A DNA stretch of 32,000 nt from Pseudomonas sp. PDM15 (GCF_014851565.1 NZ_JACVAA010000009.1:50333-82332), one strand, 5' to 3'; positions 7,812 through 32,000 are shown, counted from the first letter of the stretch. Made by a program: numbers and translations. The notes: generated by a model not told the origin, from the letters alone.

Positions 7812-8465
7812 ATGAGCGCTCAAGATAATGCGTTGGAAACCCTCTCGCAGTCCGAGGTGGAGAGTCAAGATACCCAAGGCGCCGCACAACCCGAGCCGCT
7901 CCTTGGCGATTGGCCTCAAGAAGCCATGCTGATGCGCTATACGCAGCTAGGCTCCGGGGAATACTTCAACATCTGCCACCTCGATCAGCTGCGTAGCGGC
8001 CTGAATGAATGCAGGCAGGCCCTGAATCTGCCGATGTCCCAGGGCAGTGAGCAGGTCAACTACGGCGTGCTCCGCGCGCTCCATTGCGTGAACTTTACAG
8101 AGATGAGCTCGCCAGTTCGGATGGGCATTCAAAGTGCTGTACAGGGCGCGCTCGGACTTGATCAAGAGACTGGCGTTGCGCTTTTTGGTCAAGACCGCTG
8201 GCTGGTGGCAAACCAGCTCCTGGAACAAAGTCTCGCTGCGCATAAGCCTTCACGAGAATTTCAACCAGGTGCCCTTGGCGAGAAAAACAACTTCCAAAGC
8301 TTGCTCCTTGCATTCCTTTTGGGGATCGCGCTGGCCACGGTCGGGTCTATTGTCATTGCGCACAAGAGCAAGCCTTCTTTCGAGGTGATCTATCCACCGG
8401 GCGTTGAGCCCGCTCCTCCCTCTGCTCCGCCCGTGATGATGGAAATTCCTAGGCCAAAGAGCTAG
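7812..8465 (+). CDS. hypothetical protein with C-terminal membrane anchor, 217 aa
   Basis: ATG 7812 with an AGGGAAA SD. There is a single hydrophobic helix, FQSLLLAFLLGIALATVGSIVIA, near the C-terminus, followed by a Pro-rich tail. Confidence 0.65.
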   Translation: MSAQDNALETLSQSEVESQDTQGAAQPEPLLGDWPQEAMLMRYTQLGSGEYFNICHLDQLRSGLNECRQALNLPMSQGSEQVNYGVLRALHCVNFTEMSSPVRMGIQSAVQGALGLDQETGVALFGQDRWLVANQLLEQSLAAHKPSREFQPGALGEKNNFQSLLLAFLLGIALATVGSIVIAHKSKPSFEVIYPPGVEPAPPSAPPVMMEIPRPKS

Positions 8466-8470
8466 ATGCG

Positions 8471-8740
8471 ATGAGCAAGAACCGCCGTGACCAGTTCGCC
8501 TACCTACTTCCCAGCGATGCCCCACCGAAGACGGCCAAGCTGCTGGCGAAGGTGTACATGGATATTCAACTGATCGGGATGCAGCCAACGATTAGCATGG
8601 CCGGCACCCAGCACTCAATGACACTGGGCTATGTCACCGCGCTGCACGACGCTGGGCTGATCGACATGGAGACATGGCGGGGGCTGCTGGACGATATCGT
8701 CGCGGCAAGCGAAGCGCGCAAGCGTGCCGACTGCGCATAA
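8471..8740 (+). CDS. hypothetical protein, 89 aa
   Basis: ORF 5 nt after the previous stop, on the same strand. The SD is weak. Confidence 0.5.
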   Translation: MSKNRRDQFAYLLPSDAPPKTAKLLAKVYMDIQLIGMQPTISMAGTQHSMTLGYVTALHDAGLIDMETWRGLLDDIVAASEARKRADCA

Positions 8741-8755
8741 TGAGGAAACCAGTAG

Positions 8756-9106
8756 ATGAAATCCATTTCGCAGGGCCAAGCCGACCGCCGCCTCATTGAG
8801 CAGCGCATCATCATCGCAGCTGCTGAAGGCTTGATTGCAGCGGGCTGCACAATTTCCGTTGTTGAAGGTGAGCGGGTTTTTCTCGCCGACAGCACAGATC
8901 CAGTTGCGATTGATACTGCCTTGCACGCATCGGAGGAACCCGGTTTTCTAGCGAAGCGCACTATCGACGGGGCGACGCAAGAGGGGTGGGTTGATTTTGT
9001 TGGCACGGCGGGTATCGAGGTTACTGCAGATGAGCATCTGAACGTTCAAGACGCATTGCTAACTGCCAACACTTTGGCCGTTCAGCTTGGCGTACAACGG
9101 GAATAA
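8756..9106 (+). CDS. hypothetical protein, 116 aa
   Basis: ATG 8756 with a GAGGAAA SD. Composition looks natural. Confidence 0.6.
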   Translation: MKSISQGQADRRLIEQRIIIAAAEGLIAAGCTISVVEGERVFLADSTDPVAIDTALHASEEPGFLAKRTIDGATQEGWVDFVGTAGIEVTADEHLNVQDALLTANTLAVQLGVQRE

Positions 9107-9113
9107 CCAGGAA

Positions 9114-9497
9114 ATGCCTATGGATCAGCAGATAAAAATTCAGCAGTTGAGCAACGCTCTGGAAGAGATTTGTGATGCTCTAAACATCAGCCCGTCCTAC
9201 CTTGAGCGAGTAGAGCCTCTTGAACCGCAAGGCGACCATATCCACCTCACGTTCATGTTTGAAGAGGAAGAATTGGCCGACCAGCTGATTCGCGCAGCAC
9301 GGCGCAAACTGGCGAGCTTCGGTCCGGAGTATTGGCTGCCCGACTACCACCCAGGTGCTGCTCAGTTCTCCCAGACTGAGCACATGCAGTTCAAGGTTCG
9401 AAAGAGCCTGATAGTGAGCCATCTGTACTGGGGGGTGTCCTTCATCCTCTGCGCGCCGAACGAAGGCTATTCGCTGCTTGAAGACACCCAGTCGTAA
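9114..9497 (+). CDS. hypothetical protein, about 125 aa
   Basis: Track ORF 9087..9497 begins at TTG. ATG 9114 or ATG 9120 (AGGAAA 7 nt upstream of 9120) is more plausible. Confidence 0.55.
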   Translation: MPMDQQIKIQQLSNALEEICDALNISPSYLERVEPLEPQGDHIHLTFMFEEEELADQLIRAARRKLASFGPEYWLPDYHPGAAQFSQTEHMQFKVRKSLIVSHLYWGVSFILCAPNEGYSLLEDTQS

Positions 9498-9511
9498 TGG
9501 AGGAAACCGCC

Positions 9512-9670
9512 ATGCACGATCAGTTGAAGAAGTTGCTGGATCAGATACCGCAGCAGCCACAGCGCCAAGATTCGACAAAGGCCCAGTTGGCCGACCTGCA
9601 CACATTCGCTAACCGCCTCGGCCTTTACGATGCCGCTGACGCGATCAAAGCCATCTCTGGCCGCCAGTGA
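9512..9670 (+). CDS. hypothetical small protein, 52 aa (below the ORF-track cutoff)
   Basis: ATG 9512 with a GGAGGA SD at 9499-9504. Translation MHDQLKKLLDQIPQQPQRQDSTKAQLADLHTFANRLGLYDAADAIKAISGRQ. Its TGA overlaps the GTG of the next gene (GTGA). Confidence 0.45.
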   Translation: MHDQLKKLLDQIPQQPQRQDSTKAQLADLHTFANRLGLYDAADAIKAISGRQ

Positions 9671-10410
9671 GCAGGCAACCCTCAATGGTTGCCGATACCG
9701 AACCGATGCCCTGCCCTCATGCACTTATCAGCCCAGCACTCGACCGATGGTCGGAGTGCCATTGGCATCTGCATCAGATGGAGGCGCACTACCACCAACC
9801 GGACGCCTTCCGTTACGCGCTCAACAGCTTCATTCGGGCTCTGAAAGAAGTTCCCCAGATACTCAAGATGACCATTCAGAACGAGAAGGGGCTGAAGGAG
9901 TTGATCCGACCGGAACTGACCGACCTGGAGAGCAGCGCTCTTTTCAAGCAGCTCAGCAAGACGCGGAACTACCTGGTGCACCAGGGCATGCTCGAACTGG
10001 AGAGCACAGGCAGCGCTGGCACGGTGGAGGGGAGGAAGCTCAAGATCTCCTTCCCGTTCAAGGTCGCCCCCTGGGAGAGCAGCGATGAGGCCTACGTCCG
10101 CTACAAGCAGGTCTGCCGCACCGACAAACTCATGCGAAGCCTCATCGGCCCTGACTGCGATTCATGCCCTGCCATTTGGCGTACCTGGGTAATCAGCGAC
10201 TTCCCTGGACGAGATCTACTTGAGGTGGCGTTCGAGGCCTGGCGCAAGCTCGGCGTGGTGCTTTCTGCAGCCGTCACCGCCCGCGGCGGCGAGGCGCTTG
10301 ACCTGAGCATGCCATGCCGACACGATCCTCAGCTGGTAATGGTCAAGGTCTTCAGTCAACGAGACTTCTTCTTGGAAGTCGACGGCCTTGATATCTCCCT
10401 CCAAGACTAG
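9667..10410 (+). CDS. hypothetical protein, 247 aa
   Basis: GTG 9667 is coupled to the upstream stop; ATG 9685 is an alternative start. It is a long ORF with natural composition. No motif recognised. Confidence 0.65.
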   Translation: MSRQPSMVADTEPMPCPHALISPALDRWSECHWHLHQMEAHYHQPDAFRYALNSFIRALKEVPQILKMTIQNEKGLKELIRPELTDLESSALFKQLSKTRNYLVHQGMLELESTGSAGTVEGRKLKISFPFKVAPWESSDEAYVRYKQVCRTDKLMRSLIGPDCDSCPAIWRTWVISDFPGRDLLEVAFEAWRKLGVVLSAAVTARGGEALDLSMPCRHDPQLVMVKVFSQRDFFLEVDGLDISLQD

Positions 10411-21229: not shown

Positions 21230-21427
21230 CTAAGGGATACCAGGCCCCATCACCGCCGTCCCCAACAGGTACAGCAAGAGGCCGACTCCTGACAGCAGTA
21301 TCAAAAGGCCCAGATAGAATGCCGAGCGAGCAGCATCGGTGTATGAGCCCTCGGTGGGGCACCTGGCAGCATCAGCCATCTGAGCTCCACTACCGATCAG
21401 GAATAGGCCGAGCACGAAAAGGAGCAC
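21230..21427 (-). CDS. small membrane protein (2 hydrophobic helices), 65 aa
   Basis: GTG 21427 directly abuts the TAA of the upstream gene. Helices LLFVLGLFLIGSGA and FYLGLLILLSGVGLLLYLLG. It is the last gene of the filament operon. Confidence 0.4.
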   Translation of the reverse strand: MLLFVLGLFLIGSGAQMADAARCPTEGSYTDAARSAFYLGLLILLSGVGLLLYLLGTAVMGPGIP

Positions 21428-22018
21428 TTAGTGCCCCTTCTGCACGAGCCGCCAGTAGTAATTGGCGAAGATTCGGTCGACAACGTTGGTCGGCGGGTTG
21501 ATGTCAGGGCCACCACCCTCCTCAATGACGCTTAGGTTCAGCGGGACCTCAATGTCCCATATCAGCGCCCGCGGGTATCTCTCAGTCGGGAGAATGAACA
21601 GATCGAACCGGAGCTGGCGGCCCCGGTGGCGATCAGCAAACGCCGTCAACTCGACGGTTTCGTTGTTCACATTCGCCAGGGTGACAACCTGCCGCCGGCG
21701 CCCCTGCCCGTCGTAGAGATACACGAGCAGGTACGACTTCTGCCCCTTGTCGATGTAACCGCGGAACGTCTGGCCTACCTCCCCGGCAACAGTCTTGCCC
21801 ATGTTAGCCCGGTATTCCCAGAACAACGCCTTCCCCATCATCTCGATGCGGTACTTCGTCTCGGCAAGGCCAGAGGCCTTGCCAAATCCGGTATCGGCGA
21901 GCCACCAGCAGCCACCCCCGAGAACCCCAACAAGCGCGACGATCAGCACAATTCGCTGTTTCTTGCTCCCCTCCTCAAACGGATTGAGCAGCCCGAGGAG
22001 AGCCCAGTTGAAGTTCAT
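21428..22018 (-). CDS. bitopic membrane protein of the filament operon, unknown role, 196 aa
   Basis: ATGA overlap with the upstream gene (22015-22018). One N-terminal TM helix (IVLIVALVGVLGGGCWWL) followed by a beta-rich periplasmic domain. No family recognised. Confidence 0.65.
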   Translation of the reverse strand: MNFNWALLGLLNPFEEGSKKQRIVLIVALVGVLGGGCWWLADTGFGKASGLAETKYRIEMMGKALFWEYRANMGKTVAGEVGQTFRGYIDKGQKSYLLVYLYDGQGRRRQVVTLANVNNETVELTAFADRHRGRQLRFDLFILPTERYPRALIWDIEVPLNLSVIEEGGGPDINPPTNVVDRIFANYYWRLVQKGH

Positions 22019-22563
22019 TGCTTCAACTCAAGAAGGTGCGAATATGCCCCTGCTACAAGCAGGGCGCCGTTGTTGCGCAGCTGAACAAACACCTCCAGGG
22101 GCTGGCCTTCCGGACTGGAGACGATCATGCCAATGGACTGGCCGGATTGGACAAATCGCCCATTGATGAAGGCACCGCCGGTCGCGAGGCCGGTCAGTTG
22201 AACTGATGCGAGCTGGTTGCGCAGCTGCTGCTCGGCCTCAACCGCCTTGATTGCCCCGTCATCGACCACCGGCGCTGCCGGCACGAAGATTTCGTCCAGC
22301 AGCGCCAAGTCGGGCTCTGCAGGATCCATCGACTGGGCTGGGGACGCCATCGCGCCCGGGAGCGCCTGCGGGTTATCCGGGACTGACACACTGGGCGCGA
22401 TTTCGTTGACGTAGCCCTTGATCGGCAGCTGGGAGAACTTGCTTGCCAGGGAAGGAGATCCATACACGGCGAGCAACAATGCTGCCGCCATGATGGCCCC
22501 ATTCAGGAGTACCACCTGGTTGGACGAGATTCTGTTGCCGGCCGTTGCCATTTTAGTGCCCAT
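22015..22563 (-). CDS. PilP/GspC-HR-like bitopic protein, 182 aa
   Basis: The start is placed at ATG 22563, 2 nt after the upstream stop and behind the GGAAGGAGG SD; the track start is 22593. It has a TM helix VVLLNGAIMAAALLLAVYG, a Pro/Ala-rich linker and a C-terminal beta domain VQLTGLATGGAFINGRFVQSGQSIG. That domain resembles the secretin-contacting domains of PilP, GspC and MshK. Confidence 0.55.
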   Translation of the reverse strand: MGTKMATAGNRISSNQVVLLNGAIMAAALLLAVYGSPSLASKFSQLPIKGYVNEIAPSVSVPDNPQALPGAMASPAQSMDPAEPDLALLDEIFVPAAPVVDDGAIKAVEAEQQLRNQLASVQLTGLATGGAFINGRFVQSGQSIGMIVSSPEGQPLEVFVQLRNNGALLVAGAYSHLLELKQ

Positions 22564-22565
22564 GG

Positions 22566-23102
22566 TCAAGCCTCCTTCCGTGCCAGCACGCAAAGACCGC
22601 CGAGGGTTGCCACCGGCTTCCCATCTTTGGAGGAGATATCCAGCCGGTTGAGCTCGATGTCATGCCGCACCATGCTGGTGATGCCTTTGATCATTCCCCG
22701 CATGGTCTCAGCACTGACCTGCAGCCCAGACTGATCGCCGCCGGCGACGCATGTCCGTAGCAGGCCCACCGGGGCACCTTCGAAGACAACCGCCTCTACG
22801 CGATCACTGCGAAGCGTATTGATGTCGAACTTCAACCCGCTGTTGCTCATACGAAGCGACTGGCCGATTCCGACCAGATCCTGGCGGCCATGTTCAGCAG
22901 CGACTTGGAACGACTCTTTCCAACGCGCCTGAACAGGTAGCAGCGCCTGATAAGCGGCCTTCCAGGTGCGCAGGTTGTCCAGTGCCTTGGCCTGGGCGCC
23001 GACTGCCTCACCAATGCCCGTTGAAACCTTCCAGCCACCGGCGGCAATGGCCACCGCAACCACGATGCCTGAGACAACGGCTACGACGCGCTCATTGGAC
23101 AT
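22566..23102 (-). CDS. GspM/PilO-like bitopic assembly protein, 178 aa
   Basis: N-terminal TM helix (VVAVVSGIVVAVAIAAGGW), then a helical segment, then an alpha/beta domain. Its size and its position after the GspL-like gene fit this role. There is an 11-nt overlap with the upstream gene. Confidence 0.55.
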   Translation of the reverse strand: MSNERVVAVVSGIVVAVAIAAGGWKVSTGIGEAVGAQAKALDNLRTWKAAYQALLPVQARWKESFQVAAEHGRQDLVGIGQSLRMSNSGLKFDINTLRSDRVEAVVFEGAPVGLLRTCVAGGDQSGLQVSAETMRGMIKGITSMVRHDIELNRLDISSKDGKPVATLGGLCVLARKEA

Positions 23103-24228
23103 TCCACACCCCCTCGATCTCTACGATTCGCACCCCATCCGAAGTCCGAATTTCGCCAGGCCTCAACCACATCTCGAATCCGGAGGCCTCAACGAGCCTG
23201 GTCAGCAACTGCTTGGCAAACACACGATCGGGCACGGATTTGTCCACTGGCACAGCCAGGTCCATTTCGAAATCAGTGGTGCGGCCGCCCAGGCCATTTC
23301 CCTTGGCACCTTCGCCAAAAACAGCGATGCGACGGACTTCGGCATCGCTCTTCACCGAGCTGGACGCCAAAGTCGTCCAGCGCTTGATCAGGTCGCCCTG
23401 GGCCGGTGCCATGTCAAGCATGCGCTGCTGGCTGGAGAGCGTATTGAGCATTGAGGAGCCCTGCTCATAAACGCTGCTTACTCCCTGCACTTCCTGATCA
23501 AAGTCTTTCTGCAGATCCGTGTAACGGATCCATTGGAAGCCGACCAGCGCCGCCGCAACCAGACCACCCACCAACAGCCCTGCCAGCGGGCCCGCCAAGG
23601 AGCGCAAAGGGCTCTCACTTGCCCCGCCGGCGCGCAAGGCGCGCAGCCGAAGACGCTTGAGATTCAGCTTCTCTACAGGCACCGGGATGATCTTGTAGGC
23701 GTCCATCAGGCGGTCTGGGAGCTCTAACGGATATGCCCAATAAACTGGTAGATCATCCGTGATACCGCTGCGGTTCAACACGTCATTGAGGGCCAGCAGG
23801 AACTGCGACGGGAAATCGCTCGAACTCATGGAGGGAAGCCGCTTGTCCACCACCTGGGTGACCCGACCGTCGTTGACCATGAAGAACTCAAGGTTGGTGT
23901 CCGTGTCGTTGGATGCTCCACCTACGAAAAGGAAGTCCCCGCGAAGCTTACGCATGTAATGGAGGTAAGCGTCTGCCAACAGGTAGAACTTCACCCGGGG
24001 CTGAGCTGTGACCTCTGCCATGATGGAGTTGGGGACACCAACGTGCAGGCTGCCGCCATCGCCCAACATCTTGAAGCTGGCCGGCCGGGGCTGCTGGATC
24101 TGCATGTCGGCGAACACCGGCGAAGCGGCGTCCAGGGTGACATAGGCCGCCTCCCCTGCAAGATAGATGGCCTCACCAGGACGGTAGTCCTCCGTGAGAA
24201 GTGCTCGTGCTTCAGAAACGACGCGCAT
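23092..24228 (-). CDS. GspL / PilM-PilN-fusion-like assembly protein, 378 aa
   Basis: A cytoplasmic domain of about 210 aa, a single TM helix (LAGPLAGLLVGGLVAAALVGF) and a periplasmic domain of about 140 aa. It sits directly after the platform gene. AAGGAGGG SD. Confidence 0.6.
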   Translation of the reverse strand: MRVVSEARALLTEDYRPGEAIYLAGEAAYVTLDAASPVFADMQIQQPRPASFKMLGDGGSLHVGVPNSIMAEVTAQPRVKFYLLADAYLHYMRKLRGDFLFVGGASNDTDTNLEFFMVNDGRVTQVVDKRLPSMSSSDFPSQFLLALNDVLNRSGITDDLPVYWAYPLELPDRLMDAYKIIPVPVEKLNLKRLRLRALRAGGASESPLRSLAGPLAGLLVGGLVAAALVGFQWIRYTDLQKDFDQEVQGVSSVYEQGSSMLNTLSSQQRMLDMAPAQGDLIKRWTTLASSSVKSDAEVRRIAVFGEGAKGNGLGGRTTDFEMDLAVPVDKSVPDRVFAKQLLTRLVEASGFEMWLRPGEIRTSDGVRIVEIEGVWNVQ

Positions 24229-24237
24229 GCGCCCTCC

Positions 24238-25329
24238 TTATCTCATACTGCTCGATAGCGTGTTCCCGACCATGGTGACCACCTCAAACAGGTAGGCCAC
24301 GATAGGGAGGGCTGCGGAAGATGCCACCAGGACCAACACCGCCATCTTGGAAAACTCGACCATTGCGTTGACGGTAGCCTCCGCATCCTCCAGCAAGTAA
24401 TTGCTGGCCGTCGTCAGCTGATCATCCGTCTCCATCGTCTGCTCGGAAATCTGCAGCGCTACCTGCAGGAAGATCGGCCATTGGCAACGCGGGTCGCTGG
24501 GGTCGAGCCTCGATGGGTCACAGGCAGCGCCCAGGCCTTTGCCGAGGTTGAGGTCAGCCTGGTAACGCTCAATGCCCTCTCGGAATACTTCCGGTACGGA
24601 CTTCACTGTGATGCCGATCGCTTTCGGCATATCCGAGTAGCCCGCGCGCCACATGAGGGCAAGGTAGCGAGCCCACAGCGCGAAGGAGATGTTCTTGATG
24701 GCATCCCCGAGAAATGGAATACGGAGCACCACGGAGTAGACGCCCATCCGCCCCTGGGGAGTCCGCGCGTAGAAGATCACCGCCCCCACCAGCACGATCA
24801 ACAGGGCCAACATGTAAGGCCCGCTGGTCCGGAAAAGATCCGACAGGGCGACCATGAACTCCATCAGAGCTCCACGCTCGATCGGCCGGCCTCGCGGCTG
24901 AAGCTTCGAAGAAGTCTCTGCCAGAGTTGGAATCACCGCCACGACGAAGCCGATGAAGATGATGATACCGGCCAGGAACATCATCGCCGGCTTGAGCAGA
25001 GACTTTGCAGTCTTGCGCATGCGCTCCTTCATGATCAGCGTGTCGCGGATCTCGAACATTACCGGCGCCATCTTGCCCGACTGCTCGCCAACAACGATGG
25101 CCGCAATGATTTCCTCAGGCAGCAGGCCGGCACACGTTTGCGACAGGTATCGCCCGGAGGCGATCTGAGTCGCCATCTCGGTGAGTTTCTCACTCTGCTT
25201 TGGCAGGAGACTGGACAATCGGCGCAACGCCACATCCAGATCGATTCCTGCACTCAGCAGTGCCCCGAGGTTACGCGTGAACATGATCTGCTCTCTCAGG
25301 GAGAGCATCTTTACCTTCCCGCTCATCAA
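24238..25329 (-). CDS. GspF/PilC-family inner-membrane platform protein, 363 aa
   Basis: Two T2SS-F-type repeats (REQIMFTRNLGALLSAGIDLDVAL and ISFALWARYLALMWRAGYSDMPKAI) separated by and ending in TM helices. ATGA overlap with the ATPase gene. Confidence 0.85.
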   Translation of the reverse strand: MMSGKVKMLSLREQIMFTRNLGALLSAGIDLDVALRRLSSLLPKQSEKLTEMATQIASGRYLSQTCAGLLPEEIIAAIVVGEQSGKMAPVMFEIRDTLIMKERMRKTAKSLLKPAMMFLAGIIIFIGFVVAVIPTLAETSSKLQPRGRPIERGALMEFMVALSDLFRTSGPYMLALLIVLVGAVIFYARTPQGRMGVYSVVLRIPFLGDAIKNISFALWARYLALMWRAGYSDMPKAIGITVKSVPEVFREGIERYQADLNLGKGLGAACDPSRLDPSDPRCQWPIFLQVALQISEQTMETDDQLTTASNYLLEDAEATVNAMVEFSKMAVLVLVASSAALPIVAYLFEVVTMVGNTLSSSMR

Positions 25330-27206
25330 GTGCTCACTCCCGTCAGATCAATCAAACCTTCGTGCAGCGCATCGATCGCCTGGCCCTCCAGGGTGAACGC
25401 CTGCTTTTCAGCAGCCTTGTCGAATTCACCGGCACGCAGCAGCGCTTTCACATCCTTGGTGAAGTCGAGAATGCCGTGTACCGGATAGACCCCGATGTAG
25501 CCAGTGCCCGTGCAGCGATCACATTTGTGGTCAGGTTTTTCGCGGGTGGTTACCGGGAATCTGATCTTGGATTTGTCGATCGACATCTCATCCACATCCA
25601 TTCCGCGCAGAGCCATGCTGTAACGGAACTTTGCCCACTCCGATGGCTCCGGGGCGCGCTGAACGGAGCAAACCGGACAGAGCTTGGGGACAAGCCGCTG
25701 AGTGATGATCATCACCAGGGCCTGCAGCAGGTCATGCTGACGTTCCTCGCTCAGAAGGTGAGCCAGTGAGGTGTACCCTTCCACTGGCTCAGAGGCGTGG
25801 AATGTCGAAAGAACGAGGTGGCCCGTCAGCGCTGCCCGGGTCGCGACTTCGGCGCTTGCCCGCGAACGGATTTCAGAAAGCAGGATCACATCGGGGTCGT
25901 GCCGCAAGAACCCTTCCAAGTAGGGCTCATACACATCTGCACTGGGGAGGCTGAACTGCTCCACACCAATCAGGCTGCGCTCCTTGGGGTCTTCGAGCGA
26001 CAGCCGTTTGACCGTATCCCCGAAGATGAGGTAGTGCTGGCCCAGAAACGCTGCAAGCGTGGTGGACTTACCCGAGTTGGTAGGCCCGACCAGGAGGATA
26101 ATGCCGCGCTTCACGTTGAGGGCTGAGATCAGGTGCTCCTTGACCTTCGGAACGAAGCTGAGCTTGTCGATATCGACAAACCCATCACCGTCCTCCTGCT
26201 CCAGGTAACGAGCCGAGATCGACACCATCTGATCGTCATCGTTGAACGCACTGCGCATGTCACCTGGAATGAATGAGCAGCGCATCTCATAGGTGTTGGT
26301 CTGACCGCGGTAGAAAAGGCGGCCGGTAGAAGGCTTCATCAACCGCGTGCCCGAGGCATTCGCACCGGTGGTTTGCAGCAGGAAATTCGTGACCTCGATA
26401 CGCTCCTGCAGGCTGATACGATAGCTGTGCAGGCGCACCCCATTTTCGCGGTAAAAGATCTCGCCCTCACCCGTTTCGAGAACGCGCAGCGAGAGGTCGG
26501 TGGCTTTTCGAGCCACTCCGGTCTCCAACATGTCGACTGCGATGTTGCGTTCAGTCCCGCGGGTCCGGTCTGCATAGAAGAGTCGGCCGACGTTGTGGCC
26601 GCCCTCACTCCCCCCGTTATCCTTCCGTGCGGCGCGCAGTGGCGTTGCGACCTCCACACGAGGGGCAAAGCCAAAGCGAAGCGCACGCGCTTCGGTGCGT
26701 AGACCTTTGGCCAGAGCGCTGGCGGCCGCTTCTGAGGCGCCGCGCTGGCGGTAGCGAAGCATTTCTTCGTAGCTTGAGAAGACTAGGCAGTTGTCGCCGG
26801 TTGGCATGCTGACAAGCAAGCCAGCGATCGCCTCGCACTCATTGCGAATCGGCTCGGATGCCACCAGCGGGTGCACTGCAAGGGTTTCAGGCAGTTTGGC
26901 GTAATACGGCAGGCGATCCTTGATCGCCATGACCTCGGCTTCGTGCTTGCGTACCTGAGGGTAAACGCGTGCCAGGAACTGGAAGAATGGCTCACGAGGC
27001 TGGGGGGTATCCTTCGGATTCTCCACCTGCTCTTTCGTGAGATAGCCGAGAGCGACGACGATATCCCCAACACGAACGTCGCCCTTGGGGTTGACCTTCG
27101 CGACCTTCAACGCGAACTGGCGGACCGGCTCCGGCGCATCGCCGCCCCAACCCCAGTTAGTGAGGAACTCGCGAGCGAGATCTTCGTTTTGCCCTTCCGT
27201 CATCAA
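25326..27206 (-). CDS. GspE/PilB-family type IV filament assembly ATPase, 626 aa
   Basis: Walker A LLVGPTNSGKSTT, Asp/Walker B box RHDPDVILLSEIRS and His box TGHLVLSTFHA. A tetracysteine motif CPVCS...CDRCTGTGY is present. There is a long N-terminal extension of about 330 aa. ATGA overlap with the upstream gene. Confidence 0.9.
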   Translation of the reverse strand: MMTEGQNEDLAREFLTNWGWGGDAPEPVRQFALKVAKVNPKGDVRVGDIVVALGYLTKEQVENPKDTPQPREPFFQFLARVYPQVRKHEAEVMAIKDRLPYYAKLPETLAVHPLVASEPIRNECEAIAGLLVSMPTGDNCLVFSSYEEMLRYRQRGASEAAASALAKGLRTEARALRFGFAPRVEVATPLRAARKDNGGSEGGHNVGRLFYADRTRGTERNIAVDMLETGVARKATDLSLRVLETGEGEIFYRENGVRLHSYRISLQERIEVTNFLLQTTGANASGTRLMKPSTGRLFYRGQTNTYEMRCSFIPGDMRSAFNDDDQMVSISARYLEQEDGDGFVDIDKLSFVPKVKEHLISALNVKRGIILLVGPTNSGKSTTLAAFLGQHYLIFGDTVKRLSLEDPKERSLIGVEQFSLPSADVYEPYLEGFLRHDPDVILLSEIRSRASAEVATRAALTGHLVLSTFHASEPVEGYTSLAHLLSEERQHDLLQALVMIITQRLVPKLCPVCSVQRAPEPSEWAKFRYSMALRGMDVDEMSIDKSKIRFPVTTREKPDHKCDRCTGTGYIGVYPVHGILDFTKDVKALLRAGEFDKAAEKQAFTLEGQAIDALHEGLIDLTGVST

Positions 27207-28012
27207 GGAACCCTCAATTCGCGTGCAATTTGCCGCGACGTTCCGGCTGCGCGCCGTACGGTAGTCGCGTTAGAAACGAGTGCAACATGCTTGGCCGAGA
27301 CCAGGTTGAAAACCACGGCCCCACCCCAGCGAGAAAATTGATCCGAGCAGTCAAGCGGGGTCTGTTGAAAGACCACCGGTGACGAGCAAGCGGTGTTTAG
27401 ACAAGTGCCGCCGCCGGCGGCACAAACGGTGTTTGCGTTGCCAATGGCAATTGGTCCTCTCGGGAATGTGTCCTTCTCCACAACGGAGTAGCCCCGAGCA
27501 AGCTTTTGCAGCGTGATCTGCATACGCATCGCCTCGTCTGTCAGTAATGACAGGTAGGTCTCTCGCGTTTCGATCAGATCGAAAACCACACCGCTGACCG
27601 GACCGCACCAAGAGGGCGCAGTTGCGAAACCGGCCGTCGCAGAGCATGAATTGCTGCTGACCGCCAAGGGATCCCAGGTGCGATCCCCAAGATCATCCAG
27701 CGCATAAACAAGGGCACGATCGAAGCGCCAAACCCCATCCGAAACGTTCGGCGCAGAAGCCAGATAGACCCGATCAGCGTTCGCCCCTTTGAGCTTGAAA
27801 CCTTCATCAGTAGATGCCAGATCGGCCACGGTTACCGTACCGAGCCCGCCGGTGCGCGCCATGCGCATCCGGAGGGACTCAGAGGCAACTCCCACGTAAT
27901 AGGCGTCAACACGGGCTCGGTGCTCGTACAAGCTTTCCTGAAGCATGAAAGCCACGCCAGCCATGCCGGCGCCCAGGGCAGCAAAGAGAAAAACGATCAC
28001 CAGAACCAGCAT
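27203..28012 (-). CDS. pilin-like bitopic Cys-rich protein without a class III signal peptide, 269 aa
   Basis: It begins directly with a long hydrophobic helix, MLVLVIVFLFAALGAGMAGVAFML. The extracytoplasmic domain has 6 Cys. It sits between the pilin genes and the ATPase gene. No G/F-T-L-x-E cleavage motif is present. Confidence 0.6.
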   Translation of the reverse strand: MLVLVIVFLFAALGAGMAGVAFMLQESLYEHRARVDAYYVGVASESLRMRMARTGGLGTVTVADLASTDEGFKLKGANADRVYLASAPNVSDGVWRFDRALVYALDDLGDRTWDPLAVSSNSCSATAGFATAPSWCGPVSGVVFDLIETRETYLSLLTDEAMRMQITLQKLARGYSVVEKDTFPRGPIAIGNANTVCAAGGGTCLNTACSSPVVFQQTPLDCSDQFSRWGGAVVFNLVSAKHVALVSNATTVRRAAGTSRQIARELRVP

Positions 28013-28022
28013 CGAGAAGCCC

Positions 28023-28637
28023 TTACAGGTCGTAAACCAGGGTTACAGTCGCGTGCGTACCGCCAGAAACTGCGGCGTAACGAACCACACCAGTGGTGCG
28101 GGCCGTAGCGCCGTTGAAGGTCCCTCCTTCACGACTCAGGAAGATCTCCTGAACCAGCTCGGTAGGTACGTTGGTGAACTGAACCCCCATCTGGCGGCTG
28201 CTGATATTGGTCAGACTGATCGCGCTATCGCCCACCTGGTACACGCCAGGCGTACCAGCGGAAGGCTGGGTGATGGTGGTCACCGCATCGGACATGGGGC
28301 GAATACCGGATGTGGCGTAGCGCGGCGCGTAGGTCGCCGAGATGATGCCGGTCACCTTGTCACCCATGATCACCGCATCCAGCAGGTTGTTGCCGGCCGC
28401 GGTCAACGGGTTGGAGGTTACGGCAGTCGGCGCGCGCATCGTCTGGTTCATCATCGACGCCGAGCGCACGATGTTCTGCGCCACGGACATCATTTCCTGA
28501 GCGTTTGCCTTCGAGGAAACGAAGTTGTTGATCAGCGGATAGACGATGGCTGCGATCACACCGATCAGGATGATGGTGATGAGCACTTCCACCAGGGTGA
28601 AACCCTTCTGGTTACGACGGCGATGCTTCTGAATCAT
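28023..28637 (-). CDS. type IV prepilin/pseudopilin (candidate major subunit), 204 aa precursor
   Basis: Class III signal MIQKHRRRNQKG|FTLVEVLITIILIGVIAAIVY, with Gly at -1, Phe at +1 and Glu at +5. ATG 28637 has GAGG 8 nt upstream. The track ORF extends to GTG 28673 or ATG 28670, which would give a 24-25 aa leader. The mature protein is about 192 aa and has no Cys. Confidence 0.85.
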   Translation of the reverse strand: MIQKHRRRNQKGFTLVEVLITIILIGVIAAIVYPLINNFVSSKANAQEMMSVAQNIVRSASMMNQTMRAPTAVTSNPLTAAGNNLLDAVIMGDKVTGIISATYAPRYATSGIRPMSDAVTTITQPSAGTPGVYQVGDSAISLTNISSRQMGVQFTNVPTELVQEIFLSREGGTFNGATARTTGVVRYAAVSGGTHATVTLVYDL

Positions 28638-28672
28638 GGGAATTACCTCGTTGTAGTTGAAACGTGCCATCA

Positions 28673-29716
28673 CTAGAACGTGATGATCAGATCATTGGCA
28701 GCCACCCCTGTCGGCGCAGCGCCAAGACTCACCGACCCATTGATTCGGAGTGCGCCGTAGTGCGGCTCCACGTTGGCACCGTTCGTGCCCAGCGGGTCAT
28801 AATCTCTGCAGTATTGGATCCGGCCACCCCATGGGGTGACACCGTACTGGGCCTGCGGAAGCGCAAGCTTGCTCAGCACATCAACGTTGGCCGCGTCGAG
28901 GTTGTACCAACCATCACGGCAGCCCATGTTCGTCGCGGGGTTGCCGCCAGCGAGGTTCACTGCGGTAGCGCTGGGATAGAAGTTGGTCGTTGCCGTAGGG
29001 GCCGCGCTGATCCTCATCAGGTTGAAGTAGCGCACCAACTCATTCGAAATCTTGCGCATGCGTTCTGCGGTCATATCCAGACGACTGCGCTGCAGCCCGA
29101 GGTTCGAAACAAAGACCGCCCCGAGATCTGGATCCACCACATCCCATGTCTGCCGGTTAGCCGCGGTGAGCGCCGGGCTCTGACCAGGGATGCCCAGGGA
29201 AGCGTTGGGGTTACAGGTACTACCGGTGCGGGCGCATGCAGTCGTGTAGATGACCCCCAACTGATAAGTCAGTGTGGCGGCAGGCCCTGTTGAGCGAAAA
29301 AGCGGGACTGTCTCAGTCAGGCCCGTGACCCGCTGATAAACCCGCACATTGCGCAGCACCGAGGCGTCATCAACGAAACTGGCCGGATCGACCCGACCAC
29401 GACGAATTAAGTCCATCAAGGCCACGTCTGCCGCTGCGGCGCTCGCAGGATTCAGCGGCGCGCTGGTGAGCCCACCGCCGGTATACGGCGCGGGCAAATC
29501 CCCCAATGCACTCTCAGAAGCAGCCCACCCTTCCATCGCAGCGGCGATGGAAGCGTTGGTGCTCTTTTGCCGCTCTCGATACTCCATCTGACCCAGCGCA
29601 CCCATCATCGGGAAGAGCGCAGCCAGAGCCGTTGCGATGACCCCGAGGATCACCACAGCGATCAGCAGTTCGACGATTGTGAAACCACCCTGCTTCGCCA
29701 TTTTACGACCCATCAT
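28673..29716 (-). CDS. large type IV prepilin (candidate tip/minor or adhesin pilin), 347 aa precursor
   Basis: Class III signal [11 protein letters not shown]|[21 protein letters not shown]. The mature protein is about 336 aa with two Cys pairs (CARTGSTC and GCRDGW...YCRD). It is the first gene of the operon. Confidence 0.85.
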
Positions 29717-29866
29717 AATGCCTACTAATGTTTTTCTTTAGCGTACACGTTACCAAATTGCCGCGCAACGCCGAGCACGCATTTAAAGGCTGCAACGCCC
29801 TTCCTATAAGGCATTTAGTTGGCTACCATGACTACATTGAAATAAGCAAAGTTTCTGGAGCTTGTT

Positions 29867-31552
29867 ATGCAATTCGAATTCAGTCTGAATGACGCCGATG
29901 TACGTCGCCTCGTCGCCGACGCCAAAAGCAGCGCTGATATCAACCTCCTGCGAAGCCATCTGTACCGACTGGTGAACCTGCGGAAGGAAATGGGCATCGC
30001 CATCAGGGAGCAGGCACAGAACCGTAACGACCTGGCCCGGATTGTTCAGACCGCACAGCAGGTGCTGGCGGAAGATCGCAGCACCGGCCTGCTGAGTCTT
30101 TTGGATCGCAAAGGTCTCATCAGCGGCTATCGCACCAAGCTCAAAGCCCAACTCGAAGCCAACCAGGCTCTCGCCAATGCCAACGCGGATTTGCGCAGCA
30201 AGATCTCCAGCGCATCGCAGGCGGTCGGCAGCACCCAAGCCCTACGCGATCAGGTCGGCACGCTGACCCGTCAACTCGCTGACCTGCAGGCTGCCAACCA
30301 GCATGCCCTGCAGCAGCTCGATTTCGCGCGACAAGACGCCGCAATCCGTCCCGCAGCGCTGGCAGCGGAAACCCCGCAAAACGGGCCTGACGAGGCCCTG
30401 CTCCTGACCATTCAGCAGCAGGAAGCCACGATTGCGGAACTCCAACGGCAGCTGGATCAGGCACAGTCGACACTGCAAGATCGTCACCAGGCGCAGGCTG
30501 CAGCTGCTACCCAAGAGGCAGCCGCCAGCACCCCCGAGATCGACCAGATCCGCGATATGTTCGCGCAGCAAGTGAGCGGCTACATGGCCGACAACCTGCG
30601 TCTTACGCGCGAGCTTCGCACCACCCAGGAGACTGTCGACCAGCTCAAAGGAAGCCTGGGCCAGGTCGAAGAACTGCTGGCGACTGCCAATCAAGAGAAC
30701 GCCGATGGCAAGGAACTCACTGCGGCGCTGCAGCAGCAACTGGACGCAGCAGTAGAACAGCGCGCAGGGATCGAGCAGATGCTCTCTCAGCGCGAAGAGG
30801 CCATCACCCTCCTCCAACAGCAGCTGGAGGATGCCCGCTCGGCGCTTCAATCAAGCGAGCAGAATGCCGCTGCCATCCAGACCAAGCTCGAAGGCGCAAT
30901 GGCTGACATCACGCGCCAAGCTGAAACCATCAGCAGCCTGACCCAGGATAAAGATCAACTTCTGGAGCAGGTCGCCGAGCTGGGAAAGCAGAACGGCCTG
31001 AGCCAGGCGCAGATCGCTGAGCTGCAAGAGAACATTCGGAACCACATCGGCCAGATCGAAGCCATTCAGCACGAGCTGGATACGACCATCCAGAACTGGC
31101 AGGAAAGCCAAACCCTGGACCGCCAGAAGATCCAGGATCAGTCGCAAGAAATCAGCCGTCAAAGCACTCAGCTGGAGCAGCTGTCCGCGACCAACCTCCA
31201 CCTTGAGCGCCACCTTGGTATGCTGGAAAATCGCACCGAGCGACTGCTCAGCATTAAGCAAGGCCTGGAGGCTTCCTTGAAAGCCGGTGCCGAAGAGCGT
31301 CAGCGCCTTACCGCGCTGGCCAAGGACACGTCCTACGAATTGCTGGCCGCGCAGCGGCAGAACAAGGCCTTGGAGGCCACTGTTCAGCAGCAGCAATCGC
31401 TGATCAACGATCTAAGCTCGCGCCTGCAGACCGAAAAGAAGGTGATCCACCTGGCAGGGCCTGCAGCTCGCCGTGCTGCGGAAGTCGAAGAAGAGGTTGC
31501 CGAGTTTGAACTGCCTCACCAGCAGGACGAAACTCCCGGCCATCAGATGTGA
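29867..31552 (+). CDS. long coiled-coil protein (SMC/KfrA-like architecture), 561 aa
   Basis: ATG 29867 with TGGAG 8 nt upstream. After an N-terminal domain of about 60 aa, almost the whole protein is Gln/Leu/Ala/Glu-rich heptad-like sequence (e.g. ELQRQLDQAQSTLQD, LLQQQLEDARSALQS). It is divergent from the pilin operon. Confidence 0.8.
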   Translation: MQFEFSLNDADVRRLVADAKSSADINLLRSHLYRLVNLRKEMGIAIREQAQNRNDLARIVQTAQQVLAEDRSTGLLSLLDRKGLISGYRTKLKAQLEANQALANANADLRSKISSASQAVGSTQALRDQVGTLTRQLADLQAANQHALQQLDFARQDAAIRPAALAAETPQNGPDEALLLTIQQQEATIAELQRQLDQAQSTLQDRHQAQAAAATQEAAASTPEIDQIRDMFAQQVSGYMADNLRLTRELRTTQETVDQLKGSLGQVEELLATANQENADGKELTAALQQQLDAAVEQRAGIEQMLSQREEAITLLQQQLEDARSALQSSEQNAAAIQTKLEGAMADITRQAETISSLTQDKDQLLEQVAELGKQNGLSQAQIAELQENIRNHIGQIEAIQHELDTTIQNWQESQTLDRQKIQDQSQEISRQSTQLEQLSATNLHLERHLGMLENRTERLLSIKQGLEASLKAGAEERQRLTALAKDTSYELLAAQRQNKALEATVQQQQSLINDLSSRLQTEKKVIHLAGPAARRAAEVEEEVAEFELPHQQDETPGHQM

Positions 31553-31648: not shown

Positions 31649-32000
31649 ATGCAGATCAACCCCGTCGACCTGATAGCCGACGAGCTCCTTGCGGGCGCTG
31701 AAGCCCTACCCATCGAGGCGCTCCCCGAGGTCGACGCACGCACCGCAAACGAGATCGCCGCAATAAAAGCGTTCCTCTCCAAGTGGTCGCGGTCTCCGCA
31801 TACGCTACGCCGCTACAGGGTCGAGATAGCTAGGCTGTGGCTTTGGGCTACTGAAAAAGGGCGCATGATCTCAGAGCTGACCTACGAAGACCTGAACGCT
31901 TATCGCGACTTCCTGCAGGATCCTCAACCGCACGAGCGCTGGTGTTCCGGCAAGAAGTACCGCCGCGATTCACCAAACTGGCGACCGTTCGTTTCTGCCC
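31649..32000 (+). CDS. tyrosine recombinase/integrase, N-terminal 117 codons only (continues past right edge)
   Basis: The frame is open from ATG 31649 to the window end; it is absent from the track because no stop is reached. The segment AIKAFLSKWSRSPHTLRRYRVEIARLWLWATEKGRMISELTYEDLNAYRDFL has the pattern of the SAM-like core-binding N-domain of phage-type integrases. The catalytic domain is not visible. Confidence 0.5.
   Translation, partial: MQINPVDLIADELLAGAEALPIEALPEVDARTANEIAAIKAFLSKWSRSPHTLRRYRVEIARLWLWATEKGRMISELTYEDLNAYRDFLQDPQPHERWCSGKKYRRDSPNWRPFVSA

Follow-up and report, generated by a model that had tools for sequence, protein, structure and literature searches.

A Probable Type IV Pilus Operon of an Uncharacterised Family Carried by Pseudomonas Plasmids

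The stretch of DNA analyzed here (the window) comprises 32,000 nucleotides of Pseudomonas sp. PDM15 (GCF_014851565.1, NZ_JACVAA010000009.1:50333-82332), and positions are those of the window unless another sequence is named. Ten co-directional open reading frames (ORFs), P1 to P10, span positions 21230-29716 of its minus strand. A preliminary description, made from the sequence of the window, had taken them for a ten-gene type IV filament operon lacking a secretin, a prepilin peptidase and a retraction ATPase. All ten ORFs exist, but the tenth is lineage-specific and doubtful, and the conserved unit is the nine genes P1-P9 (21428-29716, minus strand). These encode two prepilins, an ATPase and a platform protein, together with five conserved bitopic accessory proteins in a fixed order. 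With a probability of about 0.62, we consider the nine genes to be the pilin and inner-membrane operon of a plasmid type IV pilus, which belongs to an uncharacterised family on conjugative plasmids and has a role in conjugation.

The genes are tightly packed. P8 and P9 overlap by 4 nt in an ATGA (22015-22018), P6 and P7 overlap by 11 nt (at 23092), and P9 abuts P10 at 21427 (TAA GTG), all as originally described. At 27203 and 25326, however, where ATGA overlaps had been reported, the P3/P4 and P4/P5 junctions are TGATG with a 1-nt overlap, given the ATG starts of the Prokaryotic Genome Annotation Pipeline (PGAP). The likely start of P2 is the ATG at 28637 behind a GAGG ribosome-binding site, which gives 204 amino acids (aa), while the GTG at 28673 would give 216 aa. 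For P8, the likely start is the ATG at 22563, located behind AGGAGG and giving 182 aa.

The large prepilin P1 (28673-29716, minus strand, as are all genes of the operon) has 347 aa from the first ATG or 342 aa from the PGAP start, and its signal reads ...KQGG|FTIVE. It scores 30.3 bits against Pfam N_methyl (cutoff 21.2) and matches NCBIfam TIGR02532. Across seven plasmid lineages P1 shows 40-64% identity, with a mean column identity of 63%, and the residues G-1, F1, T2 and E5 as well as C161, C168, C266 and C303 are invariant. It is the best-conserved specific component of the pilus family and a candidate tip or minor pilin. The second prepilin, P2 (28023-28637), carries the signal MIQKHRRRNQKG|FTLVE (...NQKG|FTLVE), scores 39.5 bits against N_methyl (same cutoff), and shows an invariant G|FTL.E in the alignment of its orthologs. 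Judged by its size, P2 is the candidate major pilin. Both proteins are thus above the N_methyl/TIGR02532 cutoffs and share a G|FT..E class III signal that is invariant in seven orthologs, so that the two prepilins stand as first described. The same is true of the remark that they are far larger than pseudopilins, as the mature forms have 192 aa (P2) and 336 aa (P1).

P4 (25326-27206) is an extension ATPase of the GspE/PilB type with 625-626 aa, which matches PF00437 with an E value of 6e-45 (153.9 bits), and P5 (24238-25329) is a GspF/PilC-type platform protein of 362-363 aa with three transmembrane (TM) segments, which matches PF00482 in two stretches (3.7e-21, 75.8 bits). Both matches lie above the gathering cutoffs and agree with the earlier assignments. 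The catalytic motifs of the ATPase are intact, with Walker A at 374, Walker B at 440, the His box at 462, and a tetracysteine motif (CxxC...CxxC) at 510-565. Scores against the NCBIfam equivalogs are all 4-5 fold under the cutoffs, namely 126 versus 630 for GspE and 122 versus 676 for PilB in the case of P4, and 91 versus 424 bits for GspF in the case of P5. Against PDB sequences, P4 scores 114 bits with PilF, about 85 with PilB and GspE, and 61 with BfpD, and its alignment covers more length with plasmid GspE than with IncI PilQ.

The remaining proteins are considerably harder to classify. P3 and P6-P10 have no match in Pfam or NCBIfam, scans of seven orthologs each of P6, P7, and P8 against these databases gave no match either, and profile searches of PDB sequences with P6, P7, and P9 were equally negative. 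In a comparison by hhalign of the P6, P7, and P8 profiles with E. coli GspL, GspM, and GspC, which is a weak test because the templates were single sequences, the probability was 0.2%. Hydropathy shows that P3, P7, P8, and P9 are bitopic with an N-terminal TM segment, while in P6 this segment is central. P3 (27203-28012, 269 aa) has its TM segment at 2-20, no class III signal, and a periplasmic domain with the invariant cysteines C123, C136, C209, and C222, which fits its original portrayal as a Cys-rich protein without such a signal. It is colinear in all relatives.

P6 (23092-24228, 378 aa) consists of a cytoplasmic domain, a TM segment at 211-229, and a periplasmic alpha/beta domain. Searches with the single sequence and with a profile returned only 5-6 homologous proteins, and the AlphaFold2 model is shallow and poor because so few were found (seven sequences, predicted local distance difference test (pLDDT) 54.8). 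Its periplasmic C-terminus is better defined (pLDDT about 80), with the order alpha-beta-beta-alpha-beta-beta. Foldseek searches with this model gave weak actin-like matches, to 3HRG (2.4e-4) and to PilM, and a weak match to the PulL-type periplasmic domain of the type II secretion system (T2SS; TMt 0.66). 3HRG is the next structural neighbour of PilO2Bp after BfpC (PMC3984277). The architecture and the weak fold matches of this low-confidence model suggest, with modest strength, that P6 probably belongs to the GspL/PilO2/BfpC class. The earlier label "GspL-like" thus gains some weak structural support but no signal from Pfam, NCBIfam, PDB profiles, or hhalign.

P7 (22566-23102, 178 aa) has a TM segment at 6-24 and two invariant cysteines, and neither Pfam, the PDB, nor hhalign yields a match for it; its topology makes it a possible GspM/PilO analogue. 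P8 (22015-22563) combines an N-terminal TM segment, a Pro-rich linker, and a C-terminal beta-rich part with the motif GGAFINGxF...G. This motif is conserved in the ortholog alignment, where P8 is the least conserved member of the set, and by topology P8 is possibly a PilP/GspC-HR analogue.

P9 (21428-22018, 196 aa) has a TM segment at 19-40, a long helix, a five-stranded OB-fold-like domain, and C-terminal helices, with an invariant tail NPPTN..D..F..YYW. In contrast to P6, it models confidently as a membrane-anchored OB-fold domain protein, the AlphaFold2 model from 47 sequences having a pLDDT of 92.6 and a predicted TM-score (pTM) of 0.83. In this model the TM helix and the long helix are followed by beta1-3 / alpha / beta4-5 / alpha / alpha, an order of elements which by our own reading resembles the SNase-type OB fold. 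Foldseek returned weak and generic OB-fold neighbours (S1, CSD, RPA, LysRS-OB; best E 1.4e-2), among which there was no pilus or T2SS part. The invariant positions are taken by aromatic residues, Pro, and Asn, not by basic residues, and do not look catalytic. The family is rare: an exhaustive HMMER search among 1.84 billion representatives gave 54 clusters at E<=1e-3.

Over its full length, the window is syntenic with two 192-193-kb plasmids of P. aeruginosa, pNY5530-NR1 and NZ_CP115264, and about 95% identical to them; the statements below on the rest of the replicon rest on these twin plasmids. They place the operon in a conjugative-plasmid setting, in line with its earlier assignment to a mobile element. 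The integrase gene noted nearby encodes a Xer-like tyrosine recombinase on a plasmid backbone and does not count as evidence of an integrated element. We have also considered that this gene could be the shufflon recombinase, which was rejected because on the twin the Rci homolog is encoded by another gene at another site.

P1-P9 are colinear in seven plasmid lineages and in 13 contigs of genomes, and in all in over 20 plasmids and contigs of Gamma- and Betaproteobacteria. Six more distant plasmids (pPALO553, P. mendocina pPME5, P. aeruginosa pPALA50, and Stutzerimonas, Stenotrophomonas, and Xanthomonas plasmids) keep the nine-gene order at 26-64% identity. When 185,579 species genomes were scanned with a profile of P1, 15 loci were found (L012-L026), most of them arranged as secretin-P1-...-P9, in hosts that include Pseudomonas, Xanthomonas, Hydrogenophaga, Chromobacterium, Massilia, Thiobacillus, Rugamonas, Giesbergeria, and Marinobacterium. 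Searches of the open-access literature for the plasmid names and for this pilus found no description. The exact P9 protein occurs in 186 blocks of public assemblies, among them contigs of 88-214 kb (L028-L033) that come from isolates, sequencing runs, and two metagenomes of the Joint Genome Institute (JGI), and the plasmid lineage is therefore widespread; a lookup of the exact P1 protein gave no match. Another feature of pNY5530-NR1 is a DprA gene at 115621-117093 (L004 15621-17093), accompanied by several methyltransferases and PAPS-reductase-family genes.

No secretin is encoded in the 32-kb window. On pNY5530-NR1, however, a secretin of 622 aa is found at 8296-10164, about 20 kb from the pilin operon, with a PF00263 score of 51.8 bits (cutoff 27.5). 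Its gene starts 15 nt downstream of dotH, in the run dotI-dotH-secretin-icmW-like-121 aa (L002 7473-12433), in which 4-nt overlaps join dotI to dotH, the secretin to the icmW-like gene, and the next, 121-aa gene. This position inside a type IVB operon suggests that the outer-membrane channel of the pilus is co-expressed with the conjugation machinery. In five of the six distant plasmids (the exception being pPALO553) a secretin of 573-619 aa abuts P1 and is preceded by TcpQ-domain or DotD-like lipoproteins; the twin secretin is a full-length ortholog of these proteins with 36-39% identity. A lipobox is present in all secretins of the family, likewise in IncI2 PilN. In the clade of the window (pNY5530-type, pPALO553-type, P. 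koreensis, P. syringae, and GXZC) the secretin lies 16-75 kb off and is 61-83% identical. Among 72,556 plasmids, full-length homologs of the ATPase occur in 25 records, and the secretin family occurs in the same 25.

The twin-plasmid secretin is thus the cognate one, displaced by rearrangement, since in the clade of the window it is unlinked yet well conserved. The absence of a secretin from the window therefore reflects rearrangement together with the window edge, because secretin and ATPase share the 25 plasmids and the secretin abuts P1 in relatives. The earlier statement that there is no secretin is true of the 32 kb but not of the element, and we regard it as highly probable that the pilus has a plasmid-encoded secretin. 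This component is seen on the 95%-identical twins and on the relatives, not on the replicon of the window itself. On pPALA50 (L010 3781-5569) and pPME5 (L007 5628-7443), a DotD-family lipoprotein and a 330-345-aa protein precede the secretin. The C-terminus of the latter resembles that of DotH (29% over 144 aa) and TcpQ (a weak Pfam match), and the arrangement gives the impression of an outer-membrane sub-module that the type IVB secretion system and the pilus share or have exchanged.

The peptidase presents a different picture. No A24 prepilin peptidase was found with E. coli GspO, IncI2 PilU, or a two-sequence hidden Markov model on the complete twin plasmid or at any of the related loci (more than 30 flanks), and neither such a peptidase nor a PilT-type ATPase is present in the window. 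The search beyond the window that had been proposed at the outset thus yielded a secretin on the twin but no A24 peptidase, and the noted lack of peptidase and PilT extends to the whole twin plasmid, where the only other T2SSE-family ATPase is DotB-like. Among the components of the filament machine, a dedicated A24 peptidase is the one that was not found. The absence of PilT is usual for conjugative and type IVb-like pili, and the IncI2 cluster that we examined has no PilT-type ATPase either. Short leaders with G-1, F+1, and E5 constitute the canonical PilD substrate. Because no peptidase is encoded by the plasmid and both pilins carry G|FT(L/I)xE signals, host PilD is probably needed for P1 and P2. 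The dependence on host PilD suggested earlier is therefore plausible, and it has a precedent in the pil2 operon of PAPI-1, which has no peptidase and requires the chromosomal PilD (PMC8565334; PMC3984277).

The twin plasmid encodes a transfer system of the Dot/Icm type (type IVB), with a DotD/TraH lipoprotein, a DotB-like ATPase, DotH, DotI, and a coupling protein. For related Pseudomonas Dot/Icm plasmids, conjugation has been demonstrated by experiment (PMC11826091). The pilus module adjoins Dot genes in Pseudomonas and VirB3/4/5/6 genes in Stenotrophomonas, Xanthomonas, Thiobacillus, and Chromobacterium, that is, genes of two unrelated mating-pair-formation types. The 25 family plasmids, typed non-mobilizable as described below, carry genes for a type IV secretion system (T4SS) and a coupling protein; their relaxase is presumably of an unrecognised type. 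A lytic transglycosylase gene is often located 3' of the operon in relatives, and its ortholog on the twin (51% identity) lies elsewhere on the plasmid, over which further genes associated with the pilus are scattered as well.

A recombinase of the twin is 51% identical to IncI2 Rci. Beside it is a 7-kb stretch, unannotated in the PLSDB table, with 24 repeats whose core, CCGGATTGGCAA, equals the IncI2 sfx core GCCAATCCGG; the whole shufflon occupies L003 36600-45139, corresponding to about 86,600-95,139 of pNY5530-NR1. On pPALO553, a shufflon of five sfx-like sites with Rci (L005 20414-23333) lies immediately downstream of P9 and a 168-aa secreted protein, and on pPME5 a shufflon-type gene (L007 19116-19421) follows the transglycosylase; in both plasmids the shufflon is the immediate downstream neighbour of the pilus cluster. 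The window itself contains no sfx core. Across the twin and the relatives, which have 5-24 sfx-like sites along with the Rci homolog, the diversified gene encodes a Sec-signal protein of 100-125 aa that is neither a prepilin nor a pilin. About 45 aa of this protein, up to ...LSCQSGxW, form a constant part, and the C-terminus is variable. The constant part, which resembles the constant/variable junction of PilV, is present in 18 of the 25 family plasmids.

Taken together, these observations suggest the following mechanism. P1 and P2 would be cleaved and methylated by the host PilD, and P2 would be polymerised on a GspE-F-L-M-C-like platform, in which P4, P5, and P6 would probably be joined by P7 and P8. 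P1, as the large and conserved pilin, would prime or cap the P2 fibre, which would leave the cell through the plasmid secretin. The pilus may serve conjugation by donor-recipient contact and recipient recognition, like the R64/TP114 and PAPI-1 pili, and the variable adhesin would probably be the small Sec-secreted protein diversified by the Rci shufflon. A role in conjugation, as a mating or recipient-recognition pilus, appears moderately favoured and is the likeliest of those considered.

Several points weigh against this interpretation. The link of the pilus to transfer rests on sequence, not on experiment, and the secretin, the shufflon, and the transglycosylase are seen on the twin plasmids and not in the 32-kb window. 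MOB-suite types all 25 family plasmids as "non-mobilizable". Nor does the shufflon occur throughout the family, since its protein is not seen in four pPALA50-type and two Xanthomonadaceae plasmids, and as this protein is not a pilin, it would need some other route onto the pilus. Finally, the model of P6 is of low confidence, and P3, P7, and P8 have no assigned role.

Alternative functions of the operon were also considered. A T2SS-like secretion machine, in which P1 and P2 would form a short pseudopilus that pushes periplasmic plasmid-encoded proteins through the secretin, with no long pilus, would account for the E-F-L-like order and the F+1/E5 short-leader prepilins. It would also account for the two Sec-signal proteins encoded beside the cluster in relatives and for the TcpQ-domain proteins upstream of the secretin in Xanthomonadaceae. 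Its candidate substrates would be the shufflon-diversified small protein and the secreted protein of 165-170 aa, and it is of relevance here that the Tcp and Cof pili also secrete TcpF and CofJ. We nevertheless consider such a machine unlikely, because the mature pilins are far above pseudopilin size, there is no five-member GspG-K-like pseudopilin set, and no part reaches a NCBIfam T2SS equivalog; moreover, secretion and pilus formation can coexist. An equally low likelihood is given to an adhesion or biofilm pilus that aids the host or the carriage of the plasmid by attachment or aggregation, without a role in DNA transfer. Type IV pili commonly mediate adhesion and the plasmid lineage has a wide distribution among clinical P. 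aeruginosa and metagenomes, but the module repeatedly adjoins two unrelated classes of conjugative T4SS, its secretin is embedded in a dot operon, and it is linked with an Rci shufflon, and such devices are known from the thin pili of conjugation.

A competence-type pilus for DNA uptake by the element is a still more remote prospect. The OB fold of P9, a fold that often binds nucleic acids, and the DprA gene on the twin plasmid point in this direction; yet the matches to OB folds are generic as well as weak, basic residues do not feature among the invariant ones, and no ComEA/ComEC-like genes are seen in the annotated plasmid. Least credible of all is the version of the preliminary description, a filament without a secretin of its own that borrows the one of the host. 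It originates from the lack of a secretin in the window and is contradicted for the twin plasmids, which encode an orthologous secretin; the 25/25 co-occurrence with the ATPase, the conservation of this gene where it is unlinked, and its adjacency to P1 in most relatives also speak against it. Rather than a machine without a secretin, we see here an unusual form of a pilus whose kind is known.

A more far-reaching proposal, to which we assign a minor but appreciable likelihood, is that the pili of this family constitute a separate class of conjugative type IV pilus, common to Dot/Icm- and VirB-type plasmids of Gamma- and Betaproteobacteria. A detachable Sec-exported shufflon protein would dock on P1 in the periplasm and ride on the tip, and the accessory set P3, P7, P8, and P9 would be without counterpart in known pili. 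R64-style variation would in that case be combined with loading in the style of CofJ/TcpF, the recipient specificity not coming from a shufflon-edited pilin. A distinct filament subclass, the other option of the preliminary description, is likewise a possibility.

The surroundings of the operon can be described briefly. P10 (21230-21427) is a GTG-start ORF of 65 aa with two hydrophobic stretches, which is found only in the near-identical plasmid lineage and is doubtful as a gene. Within this lineage its amino acid identity is 87-89%, as compared to 98-100% for P1-P9, and no homologue was found outside it (GXZC, pPALO553, and all other relatives). PGAP leaves it unannotated on the twin, and other gene callers give 65 aa, 49 aa, or none. 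The DNA identity to the sister plasmids is about 98% in P9, 88-92% from the P9 stop codon, and about 90% onward downstream, a drop that suggests a recombination boundary at 21427/21428, where the operon ends. In the Xanthomonadaceae and Thiobacillus versions, P9 is directly followed by an extra gene of 400-425 aa (L006 17917-19194; L008 15971-17179; L021 18315-19271), which overlaps P9 by 4-8 nt in L006 and L008, has no family match, and does not occur in the Pseudomonas versions.

At the other end, a divergent intergenic region of 150 bp (29717-29866) separates P1 from a coiled-coil gene and is, by its position, the presumed promoter region of the operon; a scan of it for consensus promoters and terminators gave no convincing sigma-70 site. 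The coiled-coil protein (29867-31552, plus strand, 561 aa) is 96% identical in L001 and 31% identical in P. luteola L012, and its gene has the identical placement beside P1 in pPALO553 and GXZC. It is followed by the Xer-like tyrosine recombinase (31649-32000, plus strand). This gene pair is kept beside the operon only in the clade in which the secretin has moved (L001, L005, L012, and L035). Positions 1-20500, by synteny with L001 1-19500, are plasmid accessory cargo, including a HipA-domain toxin, a GIY-YIG nuclease, a 3'-5' exonuclease, a DNA methyltransferase, an AbiEii/AbiGii toxin pair, and many hypothetical proteins.

Plasmids of 160-280 kb with this pilus are common in clinical P. aeruginosa, yet standard typing reports them as non-mobilizable. 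A mating pilus with its own secretin, a shufflon, and a dependence on PilD would, if confirmed, help to explain how these plasmids transfer and to which recipients, and PilD, the secretin, and the adhesin would then be targets for blocking transfer. For pilus biology, the family is of interest as a compact assembly set of nine genes, five of whose products are unclassified, among them an OB-fold membrane protein that is modelled confidently, and possibly as a case in which a shufflon acts on an adhesin that is not a pilin. As for genome scanning, a "missing secretin" called from a single window is seen here to be liable to be an artefact of gene scattering.

It remains to compare the system with those already known, for which we rely on relative scores rather than on a phylogeny. 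No curated family matches it in gene order or in accessory proteins, which upholds the initial impression that no classical system has this order. A close parallel in setting is offered by the conjugative type IVb thin pili of IncI1/IncI2 plasmids (R64, TP114), whose role in liquid mating and recipient specificity is established (PMC9045228). In both cases the cluster is plasmid-borne beside a conjugative T4SS, and the system has a lipoprotein secretin, an extension ATPase, a platform protein, and a lytic transglycosylase, with no PilT, and the Rci proteins are 51% identical and share the same sfx core. The order, however, is secretin-pilin-pilin-X-ATPase-platform-L-M-P-Y here and pilN-O-P-Q-R-S-T-U-V in IncI1/IncI2. 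Among the IncI2 proteins, detectable similarity is limited to the core of PilQ (34% over 228 aa) and the transglycosylase, and tblastn at E<1 finds no match for PilN, O, P, R, S, U, and V. The present system also differs in having no peptidase of its own and short-leader F+1 pilins, and its shufflon edits a Sec-secreted non-pilin protein instead of the pilin PilV. None of the R64-type families (PilN, PF06864 PilO, PilP, PilS, PilV) is matched in Pfam or NCBIfam, which places the cluster outside the R64 type.

The pil2 pilus of PAPI-1/pKLC102 is likewise a mobile-element pilus of the same host that lacks a peptidase and uses the chromosomal PilD (PMC8565334), and it is needed for transfer and recognises the lipopolysaccharide of the recipient (PMC5297154). 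It is an R64-type cluster with a PF06864 PilO2 and a TIGR-type PilP, however, and neither family is matched here; the partner T4SS is Dot/Icm-like or VirB-like in the present system and of the integrative and conjugative element type in PAPI-1. As another candidate relative, the "ten-gene type IV pilus" of the pQBR57/IncP-2 megaplasmids was rejected, as the ATPases match only in their core (28% coverage).

With the T2SS the system shares the ATPase-platform-(L-like)-(M-like?) order, the F+1/E5 signals, and a tetracysteine ATPase that scores best against GspE/PilB. It has two large pilins instead of GspG-K and a lipoprotein secretin, and it falls outside the T2SS equivalogs, with GspE at 126 versus 630, GspF at 91 versus 424, and GspD at 28.6 versus 351 bits and with no match to GspL, GspM, or GspC. 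It is also outside the type IVa pili, PilB scoring 122 versus 676 and PilQ 15.6 versus 284, with no PilT and only the DotB-like extra ATPase on the twin. The Tcp and Cof (CFA/III) pili are similar in the TcpQ-domain proteins that precede the lipoprotein secretin in the Xanthomonadaceae members, in the large extra pilin, and in the small Sec-secreted proteins encoded with the cluster. They differ in gene order, and the present system has an ATPase nearer to PilB/GspE (85-114 bits) than to BfpD (61), no peptidase, and a conjugative plasmid as its carrier. The likeness to MSHA is confined to the secretin, which PGAP names "MshL" and whose best NCBIfam model is TIGR02519 MshL; the score of 46-70 bits is below the cutoff of 250, and no other msh-like gene or order is present. 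The system is therefore a mosaic, combining T2SS/type IVa-like signals and ATPase, a type IVb-like lipoprotein secretin with TcpQ/DotD-like partners, an R64-like plasmid and shufflon setting, and accessory proteins of its own.

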